Below are positions 10,114-44,000 of a DNA stretch of 64,000 nucleotides, in pieces; the first letter of the stretch is position 1; each line of letters begins with the position of its first letter. The position numbers were made by a program, and so were the translations under genes. The notes below the pieces were generated by a model. That model was not told where the DNA came from. It made no database searches and saw only the letters and a program-made list of their open reading frames with translations. The DNA is from Candidatus Obscuribacterales bacterium (GTDB taxonomy: Bacteria > Cyanobacteriota > Vampirovibrionia > Obscuribacterales > Obscuribacteraceae): positions 224,001 to 288,000 of the forward strand of contig CBDDIJ010000003.1 of assembly GCA_965228855.1 (NCBI GenBank), in the 5' to 3' direction.

Positions 10114-10185
<72 letters not shown>

Positions 10186-11937: not shown

Positions 11938-12732
11938 ATGACTGAAGACAATTTTCCAATTAAGAACGCAGAGGCAGTCACCGAGCCGTATTGGGATGCG
12001 TGGCTAAACATGCACGCTGATAAAAATGTGATTGTCTTCTCTGAGAAAATTGGAGCTCGAGACTCTCAGAGAAGAGCGATCATTAAGGCTGTTGCAGATC
12101 ATTTTACGAGCATTCATCGGCTGGAGGCCGCTATTTCCCGATTGGGATTCGCCCGCTCAGTTAGCGTACTGCGGAATTCAATACCGTCAGATATCAAAAT
12201 TCAGTCCGGTGATCTCGGGGAAATTCTCTGCACGGAATACATAATTCAAAAGACGAAGTTTCGAGTTCCTGTCAAGAAGCTTCGATGGAAGGATGATCGT
12301 AATTTAGCGATGAGAGGAAATGATGTTCTTGCTTTTGGTCTGAGGCAGACCCGAAAATTAGTTTTAAAAGTTGAGTCTAAAAGTCGTGCGAGCTTACATG
12401 CGAGTACGATTGTGGAAGCTGAAGAAGGGCTATTTAAAAATGATGGGCGGCCGAATCCAAGCTCGATCGCGTTTATTGTGAACAGGCTTGAAGAAGAGGG
12501 ACGATATGCTGAATCTGACTTCGTATCGTCACTCCTACAGAATGATTTTTCTCTGAAGAACATTGAGCATATGATTTTTGTTCTGTCGGGAACGCCACCT
12601 AAGAAGGTGTTTGATAAATGTCAAACAGAAAATCAGAAAGGCATCACACGATTTTTGGTGGGGGTGCACGTTGAAGGACATCAGGACTTTGTCGCGCAAA
12701 TATTCTCGGAGTGCGTAAATGGAGCGTTTTGA
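11938..12732 (+). CDS. hamA: Hachiman HamA (DUF1837) nuclease
   Basis: SGDLGEIL, KLRWKDDRNLAMRGND and ESK PD-(D/E)xK-like motifs; overlaps the helicase start. Confidence 0.85.
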   Translation: MTEDNFPIKNAEAVTEPYWDAWLNMHADKNVIVFSEKIGARDSQRRAIIKAVADHFTSIHRLEAAISRLGFARSVSVLRNSIPSDIKIQSGDLGEILCTEYIIQKTKFRVPVKKLRWKDDRNLAMRGNDVLAFGLRQTRKLVLKVESKSRASLHASTIVEAEEGLFKNDGRPNPSSIAFIVNRLEEEGRYAESDFVSSLLQNDFSLKNIEHMIFVLSGTPPKKVFDKCQTENQKGITRFLVGVHVEGHQDFVAQIFSECVNGAF

Positions 12733-15700
12733 ACAGCTTTCAGATTCTCTGCGACAACTCACGTCACAAAGTGCCCGCGATAACCTCTTGGCTAAAGGGC
12801 TTTCGAGGGGGCTAATTTGGAATCAAGGGATTTTGCCGGATGGAGCTCCCAATTACGGTCCTCTACTTACCGGAAATTTGTTGGATTATGGTTATTCAAT
12901 CCTGACGAAAGCAATTCACCTTTTAACTTCAGGCAAAGAGACGATCCTCGCTAAAGAATCAATGCGGTATGCTGCGGAATGTATTGAATCGGCGGTTCGG
13001 CGAGGTCCATCTGAAACTCTAAATGGATTCAACCTTTTAGTCTCCGCCAGCGCATTTCATATTGCGGGGTATGCTGCTCGTTCATATTGCCTCCTAGAGG
13101 GAGACATCGGAACGCAAAATCTGTCATCGATTGAGCGTTTTTTTAAATTGCTTCTTCGTAAGGAACTGGGCGAATTGCGAATTCGGTCGTATGAGTTTCT
13201 GCGCGTCGAAGCAAGTCAGGATGCCGGACTTTCCGAAGTCCTGTCAACGCCAGATTCGCAAAGGTCAATGGATATAGTTGACGTTTTGATTGTAGCCCTG
13301 TCTAGAAACTATGTAACTGCTGTTGCGGGCTTCGATTACGCACTGCGGTTTGGTGACAAGAGTGAGTTTACCAGCTCGCTAGCACTCCTTTCCTCGGGAC
13401 TAGAGAGCTGCAATCTGGCTGCGCATGTTCCGCAATGGTGGATTCACAAACTCACAATTCTGGTAATGGAGGATCTTTGGCAAAACACGCTGCATGAATG
13501 TCTTCCCGATCCACAGGGCGACCCTAACTGGTCAACAATTCGTCGGAAGTTTATCTCGGTTCAAGCTTCTCGAAACTTATCCGAAGTCGGTCTTTGGCCA
13601 TCGCAAATACAAGCGGCTCTTCGGACTTTTGATGAAACGGATGATTTGGTTGTATCCCTTCCAACAAGCGCGGGTAAAACTAAAATTGCAGAACTCTGTA
13701 TTCTCCGCTCGCTTTCCTTGGGAAAGCGAGCAATTTACGTTACACCACTTCGCGCCTTATCCGCACAAATTGAAAGGAGACTGGCGCGGTCATTTAGACC
13801 TCTAAATTTTAGCGTCTCATCACTCTACGGTGCGAGCGGAGTGGCGGGAATGGACATTAGCACTTTGAAAAAGGATCATGTTGTGGTGGCAACTCCGGAA
13901 AAGTTAGACTTCGCGCTCCGTCAGGACCCAAGCGTGTTGGATGACGTAGGGGTTGTTGTGCTCGACGAAGGTCATATGATCGGCTTAGGGAACCGCGAAA
14001 TACGTTACGAGGTGCTGGTCCAGCGACTACTAAGGCGGACGGACTCAGAGTACCGTCGAATTGTCTGCTTGTCTGCTATTTTCTCAAGCGGCGAATCTTT
14101 CCGTGACTTTACTGAATGGTTGCGATCTGACGCGGCCGGCACTGCGGTTCACTCTAGTTGGCAGCCGACTAGACGCAGAGTGGCTACTCTCCGATGGTTT
14201 GAACGAAGTGGCAAACTAGATTTTTACCAGGATGCTGATTTTGATGAGGCGTTCATCCCGCGATTTTTGACGCAGTCTACTCCGTCAAGAGGATTACGCA
14301 AATTGCCGTTTCCTCAGGATCAAGCTGAATTGACGATTAAGACAACATTTCGACTTGTTGAGTCCGGTCATAAGGTTTTGGTTTATTGCCCGCAAAAGAG
14401 ATACGTCGAATCGTTAGGGCGGCTAATCGTGAAGCTGTACAAGCAACACCTCATTCCCGATCTGCTGACCAATCGACAAGCAATTTCGAAAGCTGAAATT
14501 ATTGGACACGAATGGTTAGGAGAAAACCACATAGCTCTTCAATGTTTGCGACTCGGAATAGGAATTCATCATGGTTCTTTACCTAGACCATTTCTCGCTG
14601 AAGTGGAACAGTTGCTTGATATGAAAGCCTTACCGATAGTCATTGCGTCACCAACGATGGCGCAGGGTGTTGATCTAACTTGTAGCGCTATAGTTTTTCA
14701 TTCGATCTATTCCTTCGGAGATCGAGTAATGAGCAACGTGGATTACGCTAACGTGATCGGTCGCGTGGGTAGAGCATTCGTTGATATAGACGGTTTAGTT
14801 GTTTTTCCGCTTTTTAGACCAAAGATTACTAAGCTTAGACAATTAGATCGGCTGGTCACGAGCGTTGATAAACGTGATATGGAAAGCGGTTTAGTGCAGC
14901 TCATCGAGAGTCTGATTTTTAGATTACAAAGGCACTTCAATTTTGATAGCGCTGAATTCATCGACTACATACTCAATTCGCACCAGTTCTCCTGGCGCGT
15001 GGACGAAGAAACTGAAGAAGAAGAAACGCCGTTCTCAGAACTCTTGGATAGCTTCGACAATGCAATATTGTCCACGATAGAGGATTTGGATACAGACGTT
15101 CACAATTTAGCCGCATTACTTGATCAAGCGCTTCATCAGAGCCTTTGGGAGAGAAGAGCAGGACGCAAAGGTGATGAATTTTTATCGAGGCAGCGGGCAA
15201 TGTTGATTGCGCGTTCGAATTGGATTTGGACCAACTCTTCAGGATCGCAGAGAAGAGGTTTCTTTTCCGCGGGTATTGGATTCCAAGCCGGTCAGGTAAT
15301 TGACCAAAATCTCAATGCGCTGGTGTCATTACTGTTAGCGGCTGACAATGCGCTGGCAACCGGTGACATCGAATTGTACTCAACCTCGCTCCAAGCCTTC
15401 GCCGATATCGTCCTTGAACAATATCCTTTTTCTAGATCTAACAGAACAGCAAAATGGAAATCGGTTCTTCAGTTTTGGTTGACTGGAGCTTCGCTCGCTC
15501 CATTGAATGGAGAGACTGACTTGATTGCCTGCATACAAGAAGATTTCGTTTATCGTCTAGTCTGGGCACTGGAAGCCGTTCGAACTTATGCGCGCGAGCA
15601 AGGACTATTACAACTCGATTCGCTTTCTGGAAATCTACCATTGACGGTAATGTATGGAGTACCTTCGAAAGCTGCCGCTACTCTGCAGAAGGTGGGATTA

Positions 15701-16084
15701 CCATCAAGACTTACGGCGCAAAAACTTTTGCTTCTGTATCCAGCACCCCAGCTGGAAAGTTTTTTTGATGTACATCAATGGATATCACAGATTGAGGTAA
15801 ATCCGTTCGCCAGCGAGGACAGCGAATTTAGACTATTTGAGGACTTTGTTTCGGAGTTTCGCGATAAGGATTTTTTTGAGTCACGCGAGAAAACCTGGAG
15901 ACTAACTTTATCTGGTCTATCTGGTAGCAAAGTAAACTTTGTTCCAGATGGAGAGAATACGATTTTGGTTTCGAGCACCATGGATTTTCTTGGTCGGTTT
16001 AAGCTTGACGTCCGCAACTTAGCAATTTTTGAAGTTCAACAAAACATTGAAGACGAACTTATCGTGCGTTCCTTAAGAATATAG
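12719..16084 (+). CDS. hamB: Hachiman HamB Ski2-like SF2 helicase
   Basis: Walker A LPTSAGKT, TPEK, DEGH, LSA, HHGSLP, TMAQGVD and GRVGR motifs; 1121 aa, uninterrupted. Confidence 0.88.
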   Translation: MERFEQLSDSLRQLTSQSARDNLLAKGLSRGLIWNQGILPDGAPNYGPLLTGNLLDYGYSILTKAIHLLTSGKETILAKESMRYAAECIESAVRRGPSETLNGFNLLVSASAFHIAGYAARSYCLLEGDIGTQNLSSIERFFKLLLRKELGELRIRSYEFLRVEASQDAGLSEVLSTPDSQRSMDIVDVLIVALSRNYVTAVAGFDYALRFGDKSEFTSSLALLSSGLESCNLAAHVPQWWIHKLTILVMEDLWQNTLHECLPDPQGDPNWSTIRRKFISVQASRNLSEVGLWPSQIQAALRTFDETDDLVVSLPTSAGKTKIAELCILRSLSLGKRAIYVTPLRALSAQIERRLARSFRPLNFSVSSLYGASGVAGMDISTLKKDHVVVATPEKLDFALRQDPSVLDDVGVVVLDEGHMIGLGNREIRYEVLVQRLLRRTDSEYRRIVCLSAIFSSGESFRDFTEWLRSDAAGTAVHSSWQPTRRRVATLRWFERSGKLDFYQDADFDEAFIPRFLTQSTPSRGLRKLPFPQDQAELTIKTTFRLVESGHKVLVYCPQKRYVESLGRLIVKLYKQHLIPDLLTNRQAISKAEIIGHEWLGENHIALQCLRLGIGIHHGSLPRPFLAEVEQLLDMKALPIVIASPTMAQGVDLTCSAIVFHSIYSFGDRVMSNVDYANVIGRVGRAFVDIDGLVVFPLFRPKITKLRQLDRLVTSVDKRDMESGLVQLIESLIFRLQRHFNFDSAEFIDYILNSHQFSWRVDEETEEEETPFSELLDSFDNAILSTIEDLDTDVHNLAALLDQALHQSLWERRAGRKGDEFLSRQRAMLIARSNWIWTNSSGSQRRGFFSAGIGFQAGQVIDQNLNALVSLLLAADNALATGDIELYSTSLQAFADIVLEQYPFSRSNRTAKWKSVLQFWLTGASLAPLNGETDLIACIQEDFVYRLVWALEAVRTYAREQGLLQLDSLSGNLPLTVMYGVPSKAAATLQKVGLPSRLTAQKLLLLYPAPQLESFFDVHQWISQIEVNPFASEDSEFRLFEDFVSEFRDKDFFESREKTWRLTLSGLSGSKVNFVPDGENTILVSSTMDFLGRFKLDVRNLAIFEVQQNIEDELIVRSLRI

Positions 16085-17899: not shown

Positions 17900-18839
17900 T
17901 CAATGAATATCTGTTTGTGCTTGTTCCATCGCATCACGAACTGGATCCGACATCAAGCGAGAATAGATTTGCGTCGCTGCAATTGTCTTGTGTCCGAGTG
18001 CCTCGCGATCACAGGCAAGCTTTGGTTTCCCGTCGCCATGTAACTCGCTAATGTGCGACGAAGATCATGCAATCGAAGGTCTTCGAATTGCGCATCCTCT
18101 AAAAGTTTGTTCCAGGGGCGTTTCGGTTCCACTAAGTGTTGACCCTGATTGTTTCCTTGAAACACCCAAGGTCCATCAGCTTTCTCCAGTCGCTCTCGAA
18201 GTATCTTCAAAGCATTCGATGTTAACGGCACTACCATCGTCTCTTTGTTTTTTGATAACCTCGGCGGAATTCTCCAAATCCGTAGATTCAGATCGATGTG
18301 GAGCGCTTTGAAAATCTGACCAGTTCATTCGGAGTGAGAAATCGTTCGCGCGGCTGGATGCGAATTGTTTTGACACCGCTCCACGGATTGTCTCCGGTAA
18401 TAATTTCGTTTCTCAGGTTCCAATTCATGATCGACTGCATAATATGATCATGTTATTTGCTGCGCCAAGACCGTTCACATCGAGCACTTCGCGAGCACCT
18501 TTGCCGAGCATATCCTTCCATATAATTATTGTAGAGATCTTCAATTGTTGGTTCCGCCGCGATCACTCGGGCCGCCTGCTGCGGGTGCTTGCCATCAGCG
18601 ATCTCCGCGAGAATCTTCGCCGCTTTCTTCCGTGCTTCTTCTACAGAAACGTCGGGAAATCTTCCGATATGAACTCGCGCGCTTTTTTCGTTGAATTTTC
18701 GGCGAACGTAGAAAACCTTATTGGCCGACGATACCCGCAGCATCAAATTATGTTGATACTCGTCGTAGTAGCAATCTCTTTCTTTTGTCGGCGCTTCGAT
18801 TTGTTCGATTGCGCGTTTTGTGAAATTGATTGTGGTCAT
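17900..18839 (-). pseudogene. P4-type tyrosine integrase pseudogene
   Basis: Arm-binding N-terminus (MTTINFTKRAIEQI...HIGRFPDVSVEEARKKA); RERFLTPNEL; LRLHDLRRT; frameshifted LGH...TQIY; box I (catalytic Arg) segment missing. Confidence 0.88.
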
Positions 18840-19039
18840 AGTTTTTGTCCTGTGATTTAGGTTGAAGCGACCCAAGGTCTATATCACCGTGGGTCAGGCT
18901 GGGCCCCTTAGTCAGAATTTTGAGAAACACTCAGTGCCATTGATGATACTCCGAAACCCGCATGAGAAGCCATCGTATAAGTGACTTCCTCAAGCGAATA
19001 AAGGTTCCCCGCAGACGCAATAAATACGGTCAGGACCGT

Positions 19040-26744: not shown

Positions 26745-27035
26745 ATGAGTCAGCTAATTGAGGCATTGATACAGGCCCGTAAAGCTAAAGGTCTCAGTCA
26801 GATGGAACTCGGGCGCCGGCTCGGTGTGCCGCAAAGCTACATCTCAAAGTTAGAAAGCGGACGAGTAGACATTCGACTGAGTAATCTGGTTGACATCGGA
26901 CGGTTTCTCGAACTCGAACTTATGTTCGTGCCTACTTCGATTGCACCGAGTATCCAAGCTCTTTCAACCGTAGATTCGGCGGTTACGCCCCTTTATACTT
27001 TAGACTCGCTGGACGCAGACGATGATGGCAAATGA
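26745..27035 (+). CDS. hipB: HipB-like XRE HTH antitoxin
   Basis: ARKAKGLSQMELGRRLGVPQSYISKLESG; overlaps hipA; alternative start 26724. Confidence 0.85.
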   Translation: MSQLIEALIQARKAKGLSQMELGRRLGVPQSYISKLESGRVDIRLSNLVDIGRFLELELMFVPTSIAPSIQALSTVDSAVTPLYTLDSLDADDDGK

Positions 27036-28245
27036 TGGCGATGCGATTCAGATAAGTCTTAATGGTGTCAGAGTCGGCATGTTAAGCCGTTTGGTGAATG
27101 ACACCGTCATATTTGCTTTCGATCCTGATTATGAAGCTGATGTGCATCGACCAATTCTGAGTCTTTGCTACAAAGGTGCTCACAATGTTCTGGTGCCGGA
27201 CAAGATTCGATCTGCCGGTAAGCTACCTCCGTTTTTCAGCAACTTGTTACCGGAGGGGCACCTGCGAGATTACTTGTGCCTCAAGCATGGCATCAAGCCG
27301 CACAGAGAATTTCAGTTGCTAGGTTTACTGGGACGGGATCTACCGGGTGCCGTGACGGCGGAGCCCGTCGGAAGGCTCTCGGACGTTGTGGACGACGTTG
27401 CTGAAGCTCCTTCGGAAAGAGCGACTCTACGCTTTTCGCTTGCCGGAATTCAACTTAAGTTTTCCGCAATCACGGAAGCAACTGGAACGTTCACCATTCC
27501 CGCTAATGGCGAGGGCGGTTCATGGATCGTCAAGCTGCCCAGCGAAAGGCACCAAGAAATTCCTGAAACTGAATTCGCAATGCTCAAGTTTGCCGACCTC
27601 GTAGGAATAAAAGTTCCTGAATTCAGGCTGGTACCGACAAATTCCATTGATGGATTGCCTCGGGAATTTGGCAAGATCTCTTCGAACAGTCTTGCTGTGA
27701 AGCGATTTGATCGCACTGCATCCGGTGGCAGAATTCACATGGAAGATTTTGCTCAGGTTTATGGCTTGTACCCAGCAGATAAGTATGAACGCGCCGGCTA
27801 TGGCCATATAGCCAGAGTTATGTGGGCGGAAGCTGGACAAGAAAGTTATTCGGAATTCTTGCGTCGGTTGGTTTTTACGGTATGTATCGGCAACGGTGAT
27901 ATGTATCTGAAAAACTGGAGCCTGCTTTATAGAAATCCGACTCGCCCCGCGATATCTCCGGCCTACGATTTTGTTCCGACGATTGCTTTTATCGAGGATG
28001 ATAGGCTTGGCCTGAGTCTTGGTGGCAGTAAGGATTTTCAATCCGTGACGGTAGAAAAATTCAAAAAAATTGCCGCACAAGCAATGGCACCCGAGAAGCT
28101 AACTCTCAAAGTTGTCGGCGAAACGGTAGCTCGAATTAGCGATGTGTGGTCAAATCGACGCGATGAGTTACCGCTTAGAGACGAAACTAAAGCCATTCTC
28201 GATGGGCACATGTCAAAGCTACCTTTGTTAAACACTCGGCGTTAG
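27022..28245 (+). CDS. hipA: HipA-family kinase toxin
   Basis: PPFFSNLLPEG, FSLAGIQLK, RFDR, HMEDFAQ, GNGDMYLKNWS and SPAYD motifs. Confidence 0.92.
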   Translation: MMANDGDAIQISLNGVRVGMLSRLVNDTVIFAFDPDYEADVHRPILSLCYKGAHNVLVPDKIRSAGKLPPFFSNLLPEGHLRDYLCLKHGIKPHREFQLLGLLGRDLPGAVTAEPVGRLSDVVDDVAEAPSERATLRFSLAGIQLKFSAITEATGTFTIPANGEGGSWIVKLPSERHQEIPETEFAMLKFADLVGIKVPEFRLVPTNSIDGLPREFGKISSNSLAVKRFDRTASGGRIHMEDFAQVYGLYPADKYERAGYGHIARVMWAEAGQESYSEFLRRLVFTVCIGNGDMYLKNWSLLYRNPTRPAISPAYDFVPTIAFIEDDRLGLSLGGSKDFQSVTVEKFKKIAAQAMAPEKLTLKVVGETVARISDVWSNRRDELPLRDETKAILDGHMSKLPLLNTRR

Positions 28246-40162: not shown

Positions 40163-40804
40163 CTACTTTCTCTTAGAGCCTCGAAGTCCGTTCAAAATTA
40201 GATGCAAAAATGTTTCAACCTCAGTGTCGAATACCTTTCGGTCTGGTCGCCCTTCCTGAGGCACTGCTAAGGTTCGATCGTACGGTGGCAGATAGGCTCC
40301 GAGCATCGTTGCAATCACTTCCGTTTGAAGAGTGGTATCGGTGTCCTTTGAAATTTCGCCTTCGCCAAGTGCTGCGTCAAGGAACGACTGAATTACATTT
40401 TTCATTTCGGCGAACTTGTGATGGGCGCGGCTTCGAATTCGTGCGCTTACATAGACCAGTGTGTCAGGTGTGCGCACGCTGCTGGACTCTTCGTACACCG
40501 AGCCGACGAACTTCTTCAATGTGGTTTGTAGCGCTGGAAGGAAATCTGAATCTGTTTTTTCCAAAATGCTACGCATCATTTTAACCATGCTTGCGCAGTG
40601 ACTTTCGCATATCGTGAGAAGGATATCTTCTTTGTTGGGAAACACCGTATATAGTGTCGCCTTGCTCATTGGTACGGCACGAGCGATCTCTTCCATTGTG
40701 GTTTTCTCGAAACCATTTTCGTGAAACAGTTTGCGTGCTGCATCGACAATCTTTTCGATTTTTGCGTCGGCTTTGGAATCGGCCTTTGTTTCGGCTGGGA
40801 CCAT
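40163..40804 (-). CDS. TetR/AcrR-family regulator
   Basis: IVDAARKLFHENGFEKTTMEEIARAVPMSKATLYTVFPNKEDIL; GGAGG RBS before ATG 40804. Confidence 0.92.
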   Translation of the reverse strand: MVPAETKADSKADAKIEKIVDAARKLFHENGFEKTTMEEIARAVPMSKATLYTVFPNKEDILLTICESHCASMVKMMRSILEKTDSDFLPALQTTLKKFVGSVYEESSSVRTPDTLVYVSARIRSRAHHKFAEMKNVIQSFLDAALGEGEISKDTDTTLQTEVIATMLGAYLPPYDRTLAVPQEGRPDRKVFDTEVETFLHLILNGLRGSKRK

Positions 40805-41019
40805 TGTTACCTCCGGAGGCAAACGCGCTGCGCTGGGAGCTGGAGTGCGACTCGTCGAGGGACGATGACTCGCGTGGAGCCTCCAGGCAGTTTTCTGACT
40901 TTTACTATAGTAAACGATTGAACGATTTTTGTTTAGTCGTTCAATGTTAAATCGACATAAGTCGCCCAACTTCTCCGCTCTCGTCCGCGCCGACCGCCCG
41001 CTGCCCCCTTGCTCCCCTG

Positions 41020-41051
41020 CTCCGCTACTCCGCTACTCCGCTACTCCGCTA
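41020..41051. repeat. (CTCCGCTA)4 tandem repeat
   Basis: Read directly. Confidence 0.9.
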
Positions 41052-41182
41052 CTGCGCCTATTCTCCTCTCGGTATGTTTAGAAGGGATTTCGTATGCCGC
41101 CTGCGGAATGGGTTCCAGAGGTATTCCTCCCGAAGTATCAAATTCGCCTCGGTCTAATACTGCCAGCGGAATAGTGGAGAGC

Positions 41183-41264
41183 GGAGAAGGAGTTGCTGGT
41201 GAGCGGAGAAGGAGTGGTGGAGAGGGAGAAGGAGTTGCTGGTGAGTGGAGAAGGAGTGGTGGAG
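41183..41264. repeat. Purine-rich 42-bp-period duplication
   Basis: GGAGAAGGAGTTGCTGGTGAG(C/T)GGAGAAGGAGTGGTGGAG at 41183 and 41225. Confidence 0.9.
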
Positions 41265-41469: not shown

Positions 41470-41498
41470 TGGACGCCCATCGAAAACTTGGATATGAT
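41470..41498 (+). promoter_or_regulatory. Putative promoter of RNA B1
   Basis: TGGACG-N17-TATGAT; the same geometry recurs at B2. Confidence 0.5.
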
Positions 41499-41501
41499 TG
41501 A

Positions 41502-41697
41502 TATTGATACCAATAACAGATGCACAGGACTACCTGCGGTGGTCCACAACAATTGTCTGGCACGAGGCATTTAGACCCTCGTTAATAGGTAGAAATTGAG
41601 CGGAGATTGCACGGCAACCTCCGTTGATGGTGGCGCATTTAGTACCACTACAACGGGTTGTCGGCTTTGCGTTGAGTGGCTGTCCATGCGAATCTTC
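41502..41697 (+). ncRNA. Unassigned structured RNA 'B', copy 1
   Basis: ~195-nt homolog of 42171-42367 with compensatory or G-U-tolerated changes in several stems. Confidence 0.6.
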
Positions 41698-41830
41698 GTG
41701 AAATCGCTGATAAAAATGCTGTAACTGTTCCAGTGCAGAATTGGCTTGTGGTTCCGGGTTTTTGATGTTTGTCTGGCTGGTCTTCTCTCCGATGGATAGC
41801 GGCTTTCGTCGGACGCTAAAAAATTTTCTT

Positions 41831-41877
41831 AAAACAAAAATGGGGGACTTCCGCGCGGGGAATTCTGTTGGTATATT
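41831..41877 (+). promoter_or_regulatory. Putative promoter of RNA A1
   Basis: A-tract UP-like element, TTCCGC-N17-TATATT with extended -10 TG. Confidence 0.55.
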
Positions 41878-41880
41878 AGT

Positions 41881-42092
41881 AAATGAAGACGGTGAGTGAC
41901 TTGAAACGAAGCCACTTTGAGCCGAGGGGCAATGCGGAAACGGCAGGTTGGCGCCCAACCGGATACGACAGCAAGCAGCCCGCTAAGCGTGAAGGACTAG
42001 CTGAAGCGCTTTGAAATACTGAGCCTGTGCAACAGGCAGCTAGACGGTAGCTTGAGCACCACTGCAACGTAAGTTGGGTGGTGTTTTTGTTT
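41881..42092 (+). ncRNA. Unassigned structured RNA 'A', copy 1 (includes terminator)
   Basis: 212 nt, ~95% identical without indels to copies 2 and 3; covarying hairpin; GNRA-capped terminator followed by a T tract. Confidence 0.7.
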
Positions 42093-42138
42093 GCGGATCT
42101 TTCTCAAAAAAATATGGTGCCAAGATGTGCAAAAGTCG

Positions 42139-42167
42139 TTTACCAGCGGCATGTTGTTGGGTATGAT
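42139..42167 (+). promoter_or_regulatory. Putative promoter of RNA B2
   Basis: TTTACC-N17-TATGAT. Confidence 0.5.
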
Positions 42168-42170
42168 AGT

Positions 42171-42367
42171 TATTGATACCAATAACAGATGCACCGGACT
42201 GCCTGCGGCGGTCCAAAATAATTGTCTGGAACGGGCATTCTAAATCCCGTTGAAATAGGTAGAAATTGAGCGGAGTTTGCACGGCAATCTCTGTTGATAG
42301 TGGCGCATTTAGTACCACTAAGACAGGTTGTCGGCTTTGCGTTGTCTGGCTATTCATGCGACTCTCG
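42171..42367 (+). ncRNA. Unassigned structured RNA 'B', copy 2
   Basis: Homolog of B1 with compensatory stem changes. Confidence 0.6.
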
Positions 42368-42499
42368 AAGATCTGTGGTGTCGAATGTGGTGCGTATTTC
42401 TCCTGCCGGTGCAGTGCTGTTGTTCAAGCGTTCGCTGGCGGTTTGAAAAATATAGAAGCGCATGGATACTCATACTTGGCTTGCTCAAAAAAGTTTTTC

Positions 42500-42547
42500 A
42501 AAAACAAAAAAGGGGGTCTTCCCATGTGCATGATTCGTTGATATAGT
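42500..42547 (+). promoter_or_regulatory. Putative promoter of RNA A2
   Basis: A-tract, TTCCCA-N17-TATAGT with extended TG. Confidence 0.55.
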
Positions 42548-42550
42548 TAT

Positions 42551-42762
42551 AAATGAAGACGGTGAGTGACCTGAAACGAGGTCACGTTGAGCCGAGGGGC
42601 AATGCGGAAACGGCAGGTTGGCGCCCAACCGGATACGACAGCAAGCAGCCCGCTAAACGTGAAGGACTAGCTGAAGCGTTTTGAAATACTGAGCCTGTGC
42701 AACAGGCAGCTAGACAGTAGCTAAAGCACCGCTGCAACGCAAGTTGGGTGGTGTTTTTGTTT
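42551..42762 (+). ncRNA. Unassigned structured RNA 'A', copy 2
   Basis: Exactly 670 nt downstream of A1; 11 substitutions, no indels. Confidence 0.7.
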
Positions 42763-42978
42763 TGGAAAGTTTTTCTGAGTCACCGCTGACGGTGCGCGCC
42801 GCCAGGCGTCGCTGCTCCCGTCTCCTGGCTTGCTGAGCGCTTCTTGGCAGGCGAGACTGGATTCACGTGAGAAGGTTCGAGCAGCAATACTGGTCTGTTG
42901 TTCAATGGATGCGAGAACAACTGCGTTTCCGAAACCCTTATGGATAGCTCTTATACATGGTTCCAGAAAGATTTTCTG

Positions 42979-43025
42979 AAAACAAAAAAGGGGGTCTTCC
43001 CACACGCATGATTCGTTGATATAGT
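42979..43025 (+). promoter_or_regulatory. Putative promoter of RNA A3
   Basis: A-tract, TTCCCA-N17-TATAGT with extended TG. Confidence 0.55.
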
Positions 43026-43028
43026 TAT

Positions 43029-43240
43029 AAATGAAGACGGTGAGCGACTTGAAATGAGGTCGCTTTGAGCCGAGGGGCAATGCGGAAACGGCAGGTTGGC
43101 GCCCAACCGGATACGACAGCAAGCAGCCCGCTTAGCGTGAAGGACTAGCTGAAGCGCTTCGAAATACTGAGCCTGTGCAACAGGCAGCTAGACGGTAGCT
43201 TAAGCACCACGGCAACGCAAGTTGAGTGGTGTTTTTGTTT
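43029..43240 (+). ncRNA. Unassigned structured RNA 'A', copy 3
   Basis: 478 nt downstream of A2; 11 substitutions versus A1, no indels. Confidence 0.7.
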
Positions 43241-43529: not shown

Positions 43530-44000
43530 ATGACGGACAAGCTTCAAGTGAAAGTCGAGCGACTCGCGCACTGCAAAGAACTCCCTCGCTACGCCACCCC
43601 TGGCTCTGCCGGCATGGACCTGACCTTTGCTTCGGAAGAGCCGATCACGGTAGCGCCCGGCAAGCGCGCCAAACTCGCTACCGGTATCAAGCTTGAAATC
43701 CCGTTCGGATACGAAGCGCAGATTCGTCCCCGCTCGGGTCTGGCCGCAAAGGCGGGCATCAGCCTCACGAATTGCGTCGGCACAATCGATAGCGACTACC
43801 GCGGCGAAGTGATGGTTTTGATAATCAATCATGGCGACGAACCTTATACATTCAGTCCAGGTGAGCGTATTGCCCAGATGGTGATCGTGCCGGTTCCGGT
43901 CATCGAACTTGTTCAGGTCGAACAAGTCGCAGACACTGAGCGGGGTGAAGGCGGTTTCGGTTCGACCGGCAAAACTGCTCTTGCCGCCAACGGCGCTTAA
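43530..44000 (+). CDS. dut: dUTP diphosphatase
   Basis: SAGMDL, RPRSGLA, GTIDSDYRGE, RIAQ and RGEGGFGSTG motifs. Confidence 0.97.
   Translation: MTDKLQVKVERLAHCKELPRYATPGSAGMDLTFASEEPITVAPGKRAKLATGIKLEIPFGYEAQIRPRSGLAAKAGISLTNCVGTIDSDYRGEVMVLIINHGDEPYTFSPGERIAQMVIVPVPVIELVQVEQVADTERGEGGFGSTGKTALAANGA

Follow-up and report, generated by a model that had tools for sequence, protein, structure and literature searches.

A tandem array of poplar-1 RNA genes, two of them behind a lineage-restricted small RNA candidate, in a member of the Obscuribacterales

The interval between tetR and dut in the genome of a Candidatus Obscuribacterales bacterium contains three tandem genes for poplar-1, an RNA already catalogued in Rfam, and two of these genes stand behind a separate, RNA-like element that was likely co-duplicated with them. 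Poplar-1 likely acts in trans, as an abundant RNA that binds a protein and whose dose increases with the number of its genes; we assign this reading as a whole a probability of about 0.6. A first-pass annotation had described the same interval as an array of two unrecognised structured RNAs, A and B, and thus as a candidate new RNA system. Our analyses revealed that the array is instead a known RNA (A) that has been amplified, together with a new small RNA (sRNA) candidate (B) of narrow distribution.

Organization of the Array and Its Neighborhood

The window is the 64,000-nt stretch of DNA that was analyzed; the genome of this bacterium is referred to as G000 and that of a near relative as G007. 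Between positions 41470 and 43240 of the window, on the forward strand, the elements follow the order B-A-B-A-x-A (Table 1). The three A copies are in register with spacings of 670 and 478 nt and are identical to each other at 200, 200, and 197 of 211 positions, and the two B copies lie 669–670 nt apart and are 87% identical. Repeat alignment thereby confirmed the copy numbers and the 670-nt period first noted, as well as the observation that the two B-to-A spacers have equal length yet do not align (38–40 of 116 positions identical without gaps).

Mechanically called open reading frames (ORFs) of 91–142 aa cover the array, and on sequence comparison they are judged not credible as genes. In the near relative G007, the three of at least 100 aa are either interrupted or matched over part of their length (the limit of 100 aa excluded the 91-aa frame), and no ORF on either strand is common to the 11 B copies described below, in agreement with the earlier statement that no credible coding sequence lies between tetR and dut. 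A promoter scan found seven sigma70-like sites over the array compared with 2.1 ± 1.5 in 50 shuffles. Four of these sites precede B1, B2, A2, and A3; the homologous site of A1 is below the scan threshold. The terminator assigned to each A copy was missing from the terminator-scan output, but a 3' hairpin followed by a U-tract is visible in the fold of A and its pairs covary across 61 copies.

The TetR gene is absent from the corresponding place in five relatives (G001, G003, G004, G005, and G021), whereas dut, identified by profile scan, is a conserved neighbor; the genes that follow it are presumably dapB-asd-dapA-rnj. The tRNA-Thr(CGT) gene lies 31 kb from the array in this window, a separation likely due to rearrangement. 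It is followed by an island-like stretch (10114 to about 28300) with a helicase-like ORF of 1,121 aa, so labeled from motifs (12719–16084), an integrase arm-binding fragment (18453–18875), and a HipA-like gene (27022–28245). Upstream of tetR, positions 40990–41264 carry short 8-nt and 40-nt C-rich/G-rich repeats that are partly complementary.

Table 1. Positions in the window of the array elements and their neighbors
Feature	Position	Strand	Evidence and remarks
tRNA-Thr(CGT)	10114–10185	+	Normally the divergent left neighbor of the locus in relatives
TetR-family regulator	40163–40804	-	Left neighbor
Predicted promoter of B1	41470–41498	+	-35 TGGACG, 17 nt, -10 TATGAT; promoter scan
B1, folded RNA candidate	41502–41675	+	No Rfam match; fold z; 3' end predicted
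Predicted regulatory region and promoter upstream of A1	41628–41875	+	Fixed-distance motifs, A-tract, -10
A1, poplar-1 RNA gene	41882–42092	+	Rfam match 41916–42054, 129.3 bits; start site predicted
Predicted promoter of B2	42139–42167	+	Promoter scan
B2, second B copy	42171–42345	+	87% identity to B1; fold z -2.9
Predicted regulatory region and promoter upstream of A2	42346–42547	+	Promoter scan, motif layout
A2, poplar-1 RNA gene	42553–42762	+	Rfam match 42586–42724, 133.5 bits
A2 kink-turn	42560–42594	+	3-nt bulge 42586–42588
A2 terminator	42727–42753	+	Hairpin, followed by U-tract; fold, covariation
"x," predicted regulatory region and promoter upstream of A3, lacking B	42770–43025	+	Fold z -0.7
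A3, poplar-1 RNA gene	43031–43240	+	Rfam match 43064–43202, 129.5 bits
dut (dUTPase)	43530–44000	+	Conserved right neighbor; profile scan

Element A Is Poplar-1, an RNA Likely Typical of the Obscuribacterales

Element A is the already catalogued RNA poplar-1 (RF03041), whose function is unknown. All three copies match the whole model (positions 1–141) above the gathering cut-off of 110.5 bits (Table 1). A strong Rfam hit had been named beforehand as the result that would speak against a new system; it was obtained for A, and B remains the one unrecognised element of the two. The motif presumably stems from the motif set of Weinberg 2017.

The genome G000 encodes six copies, namely the three of the array, a tandem pair (C3:2278454-2278996), and a single copy (C3:433459-433599); the three copies outside the array (loci L016 and L017) have a changed pseudoknot sequence. 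Among 100 relatives searched, we identified poplar-1 in 55 of 60 genomes of the family, with 1–12 copies each, in all three genomes of the same order, and in none of the remaining 37; it was also found in none of 140 other genomes of the phylum. The host lineage is therefore likely the Obscuribacterales, in which poplar-1 would be near-universal and multicopy. Among the matches listed (80 of 147), records that match sequence patterns for B and A are mostly labeled Obscuribacter, Obscuribacterales, or Melainabacteria. Four differently labeled genomes were checked, of which one had no model match and the others had 1, 4, and 6 matches (their kinship was not given), and hosts outside the Obscuribacterales are possible. 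The poplar-1 pattern also occurs on one contig of a viral collection (L193, 2,581 nt), and a full match lies on a 2,364-nt contig (L342) of G277, a genome labeled Alphaproteobacteria; both may reflect mis-binning. The family genomes with no match are G024, G026, G050, G037, and G041, three of which are 86–97% complete, and these five are useful for profiling a partner protein.

To see how poplar-1 relates to its neighbors, we recorded the gene next downstream of 90 copies, using crude ORF calls in related and hence not independent genomes: 41 are co-directional, 36 are convergent, 12 are another poplar-1, and one copy has none. Because there is no orientation bias toward downstream genes, poplar-1 is likely a stand-alone RNA, unlike a riboswitch, and a riboswitch or attenuator role for A was rejected on these counts.

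There is a hint that poplar-1 is transcribed. Contigs from all seven metatranscriptome runs considered (7 of 24 listed, chosen by sequence words present in triplicate in A, and available as contigs only) cover poplar-1; run X1 behaved as DNA. These contigs are identical or near-identical to parts of 41885–42066 in A1, and one begins at 41885, beside the predicted A1 start. In print we found one passing mention of poplar-1 and nothing on its host lineage, copy number, tandem arrays, or upstream layout. A drinking-water metatranscriptome preprint lists it among RNAs enriched in intracellular RNA (10.1101/2025.10.18.683149), and the main text of PMC5737381, as far as accessible, does not name it; the supplement of that paper may describe the pseudoknot, the hosts, or the copy number.

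Poplar-1 Extends beyond the Rfam Model

RF03041 is typed in Rfam as "Gene; sRNA." The gene defined here is longer than its 141 positions, at about 205–210 nt, since a 5' kink-turn hairpin and the terminator lie outside the model. In an alignment of 61 nonredundant copies, the strongest covarying pairs include the 5' hairpin and the 3' terminator. In a standard kink-turn (PMC5061560), two stems flank a 3-nt bulge and the G.A and A.G pairs that come after it. As a sequence pattern this arrangement is present in A, where the tandem pairs are found in 60 and 61 of 61 copies, respectively, and the flanking stems are 87–100% paired. In addition, a 7-bp pseudoknot joins 42667–42673 with 42707–42713 in A2; it is paired in 95–100% of the 61 copies with exchanges between G-C and A-U. 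The pseudoknot does not appear in the structure line of cmscan, a program that omits pseudoknots, and the source of the model may contain it.

The poplar-1 hairpin presents two facing, conserved, purine-rich strands, each with RG..A and then an invariant C. These strands recall the paired T-loops of the double T-loop module that docks tRNA, a likeness that we regard as a lead. The core of that module is AG..A plus UG..A (PMC3664808), whereas in poplar-1 both strands read RG..A and neither reads UG..A, and the module was rejected as an identification.

A Dedicated Upstream Layout

Analysis of 73 nonredundant sequences from 90 poplar-1 upstream regions revealed a layout common to the family that comprises a GGGGTACTTC box, a -10 element, an AT-rich tract, and a motif ~91 nt further up; the motifs were defined after the data had been viewed. 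The promoter pattern derived from poplar-1 copies occurs seven times in the genome, six times at poplar-1. Upstream of A1, motifs lie at about -214, -156, and -91 relative to the GGGG-CTT box at 41842, and the first of them overlaps the 3' hairpin of B. At dut-side poplar-1 genes, the most distal motif is found at -211 to -214 in six of seven genera examined and the second at about -156, in both cases including genera without B. In the B-less region before A3, the -91 motif is retained along with a degenerate form of the -156 motif.

This layout accounts for the constant length of the B-to-A spacers, because the spacer is the upstream region of A with its sites at fixed distances. It also bears on where B ends. 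The tail that had been counted as part of B (20–30 nt, about 41676–41700) keeps a constant distance to the poplar-1 promoter, and a degenerate match to it precedes the B-less A3; therefore, B probably ends near 41675, and the length of ~195 nt given in the first-pass annotation is probably too long although its location and copy number hold. Since the 3' hairpin of B overlaps a fixed-distance motif, the overlapped site may act as DNA.

Element B Is a Candidate sRNA Restricted to Few Genera

Neither B copy of the array matches any Rfam 15 family at E values up to 10, and B is unlike A (local alignment z at most 2.9). The genome G000 contains two copies. BLAST searches found B in five of the seven other genomes of the genus; in G002 and G006 it was not found but may have been missed, since the contigs of these genomes stop 399 and 344 nt short of dut. 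A covariance-model search of 104 family genomes identified 11 copies in seven of them, which added one genome of another genus (G021), and nothing outside these two genera. When the model was run unfiltered on 12 slot loci (see below), G021 alone was significant and G029 reached an E value of 0.83; however, a profile search placed a 3' piece of B at a contig end in G029 (E value 7.5e-6), tentatively a third genus carrying B. The exact B pattern was found in eight stretches of six genome records and in three stretches of two metagenome contigs. All 11 copies lie just upstream of a dut-side poplar-1, co-directional with it and ~130 nt before its promoter. Across the two genera the -10 of the B promoter is kept in all 11 copies and the -35 in nine, the -35 being missing from two B2-type copies.

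Comparison of orthologous units in G000 and G007 showed that B is 96% and A 99–100% identical, whereas the spacer is 66–69% identical, which supports the earlier proposal of an amplification in tandem, with purifying selection acting on each of two elements that have their own promoters. B1 folds with z -3.3, with 0 of 200 shuffles as good, and B copies range from -2.9 to -3.7 compared with +0.4 to -1.4 for the spacers. The predicted shape of B1 comprises a 5' nested hairpin, a second hairpin, and a 3' helix around a hairpin, followed by a weak U-tract; no strong terminator was found for B. In the model, the 3' helices possibly form an H-type pseudoknot. Across nine copies, 92% of the cells of the 38-pair structure are paired, and 5 of the 38 pairs show a compensatory change. 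Covariation is modest: its five measures were reached by 26, 38, 7, 490, and 8 of 500 shuffles, and in the 3' domain alone (12 copies) covariation was not above shuffles (139–477 of 500). Hairpin loops vary in length, the G021 copy has an insertion of 40–55 nt, and the copies differ by indels of 1–5 nt; overall length is about 170–230 nt, with about 175 nt in the array. A small-protein gene or type I toxin was rejected, given these indels and the lack of a conserved frame. No contig of the seven metatranscriptome runs lies on B, which carries no weight on its transcription because the runs were picked through words of A, were available as contigs, and came from samples in which this organism may be absent. 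Overall, B likely has an RNA structure, and it is likely an undescribed, lineage-restricted sRNA candidate of about 170–180 nt for which transcription is predicted.

Two other readings of B have to be weighed. First, B could be a cis-acting leader or attenuator, its promoter firing toward poplar-1. Alternative 3' helices would then determine whether transcription terminates or instead reads through into, or interferes with, the promoter of poplar-1. The invariable position of B ahead of that promoter in 11 of 11 copies, the overlap of helices 5 and 6, which have one strand in common, and the weak U-tract after the 3' helix are all compatible with this. Poplar-1 has a full promoter of its own, however, and A3 and most copies in the family have no B; helices 5 and 6 are compatible with each other as a pseudoknot, and B matches no riboswitch family to an E value of 10. 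An attenuator thus appears doubtful. Second, B might be no RNA gene at all but conserved regulatory DNA of the dut-side poplar-1, consisting of palindromic protein sites and an upstream promoter. Its 3' third carries the two distal fixed-distance motifs, the first of them conserved in 6 of 7 genera, covariation in the 3' domain is not above shuffles, and 21 of the 38 helix pairs never vary; on sequence grounds, the conservation of the 3' hairpin may partly be at the DNA level. As an account of B as a whole, regulatory DNA is unlikely, because the helices are nested and contain G-U pairs and compensatory changes, the loops vary in length and tolerate the G021 insertion, conservation begins a few bases past the conserved -10 box, and the fold z is about -3. 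We therefore continue to treat B as an sRNA candidate.

The Slot beside Poplar-1 and the History of the Locus

Across genera, the locus recurs as a divergent tRNA-Thr(CGT) gene followed by poplar-1, in many cases an M16 peptidase gene, and then dut. Thirteen of 42 stretches contained both tRNA-Thr and poplar-1, and the slot between them is a short gap in six, a protein gene in four, and a folded noncoding element in three. The elements of other genera are 254–386 nt long, follow a -10-like box, and fold with z -2.2 to -6.1. Together with B they form at least five groups without mutual alignment (60 shuffles): B scores z at most 4.6 against other slot elements, whereas B copies score 7–65 among themselves. 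An Rfam scan of 11 slot loci returned poplar-1 and tRNA only. Elements between tRNA-Thr(CGT) and poplar-1 were recorded at L077, L081-L087, L092, L094, L095, L154, L162, and L163, the last three of which lie outside the Rfam scan; those of G042/G057, G058/G043, and G010 have a 5' hairpin in common.

Phylogenetic trees revealed that copies cluster by genome in G005, G021, and G012, whereas the copies of G000 pair with those of G007. Judged from these sequences, at least four duplications probably took place, three of which involved a B+A unit (in the G000/G007, G005, and G021 lineages), although concerted evolution would look alike. A second tandem poplar-1 locus, that of the pair in G000, lies between fumarase and response-regulator genes, has up to six copies, and varies within the genus. 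Nine copies each were seen in L049 (G054:C10:25355-41477) and L050 (G038:C8:163896-182582); most of these alternate with opposite-strand genes, often at ~2.2-kb spacing, and share a terminator region. The alternating genes, amplified jointly with poplar-1, are presumably kinase-like, a label based on motifs.

The duplication of B+A as a unit in three lineages, and the retention of a folded slot element in other genera, could suggest that A and B are functional partners, as had been raised at the outset, by base-pairing or in a two-RNA complex, co-amplified to hold their ratio. However, most genomes have poplar-1 without B (poplar-1 in 55 of 60 family genomes, B in 7 of 104), this genome holds six A but two B, the gap is too short to hold a slot element at 6 or more of the 13 tRNA-Thr and poplar-1 loci, and slot elements fall into the nonaligning groups described above. 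The suggested check for an A-B interaction gave complementarity at chance: the longest perfect complement is 7–8 nt compared with 7.1–7.2 nt in shuffles, and shuffles equaled the duplex energies in 5, 11, 29, and 1 of 100 cases. A partnership is thus very unlikely. That the repeats are a MITE or another nonautonomous mobile element is hardly credible: copies number up to 12 and are partly dispersed, and the copy at C3:433459 lies between genes that are not neighbors in four of five relatives searched (so that no empty site can be read), but there is no terminal inverted repeat other than A/T tracts, the tRNA-Thr/dut locus is common to many genera with tandem growth at fixed loci, and A has strong RNA covariation, a promoter, and a terminator. 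Unsystematic inspection brought up neither target-site duplications nor precise empty sites.

Discussion

We propose that each poplar-1 copy would be transcribed from its own promoter, with a regulator binding the upstream sites at fixed distances, and that the RNA would fold into a compact, pseudoknotted shape and stop at its own terminator. It would then act in trans by binding a protein target, and unequal recombination between copies would alter its dose; the duplications could also be neutral rather than selected for dosage. B would be an sRNA gene of its own, 170–180 nt long, that selection maintains although poplar-1 can do without it, and it would occupy the variable slot separating poplar-1 from tRNA-Thr(CGT).

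Protein binding by poplar-1 is likely, judging by exclusion and by the invariant loops. CsrB/C and RsmX/Y/Z are multicopy sRNAs that act as protein sponges and have many conserved ANGGA loop motifs. Poplar-1 resembles them in its stand-alone copies, own terminators, and fixed-distance upstream sites, and differs in its pseudoknotted tertiary fold and in a host without a CsrA match. It has only three GGA-like sites, one of which is ANGGA whereas the other two vary to AGA and lack the A. The genome (95% complete) has no match to the CsrA family (PF02599) and none to the L7Ae family; therefore, two obvious binders of poplar-1 are missing. With no PF02599 and a single ANGGA site, an identity of A as a CsrB/Rsm sRNA was rejected.

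Neither A nor B is 6S, tmRNA, RNase P, or SRP RNA, as the copies of these in the genome are located elsewhere. RNase P, SRP, and tmRNA were found above cut-off, and SmpB was also found; ARAGORN and a two-piece tmRNA model gave no tmRNA in the genome, the tmRNA having come from another search. A weak 6S-like match (G000:C2:813651-813889, 28.8 bits) is below cut-off; 37 of the 60 family genomes have one weak match of this kind, which suggests a diverged 6S RNA. Elsewhere in the genome, G000:C3:724518-727973 carries an array of 21 tRNA genes that all have the same orientation, several being atypical.

A more far-reaching scenario, to which we give low credence, is that poplar-1 is an order-wide, highly expressed housekeeping RNA machine with its kink-turn, its pseudoknot, and a two-fold symmetric docking module that maybe grips tRNA or a core protein. 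The slot would then be an exchangeable cassette of genus-specific, ornate RNAs, B included, that tune or partner poplar-1.

Under our preferred reading, an amplified trans-acting poplar-1 and a separate B, the orphan Rfam motif poplar-1 gains a likely host lineage and complete gene limits, along with two tertiary features and a promoter layout of its own upstream. With these in hand, the function of poplar-1 becomes testable. B adds one narrowly spread sRNA candidate, and the presence of at least five unrelated folded elements in one slot would, if they are transcribed, be an uncommon instance of rapid RNA-gene turnover.
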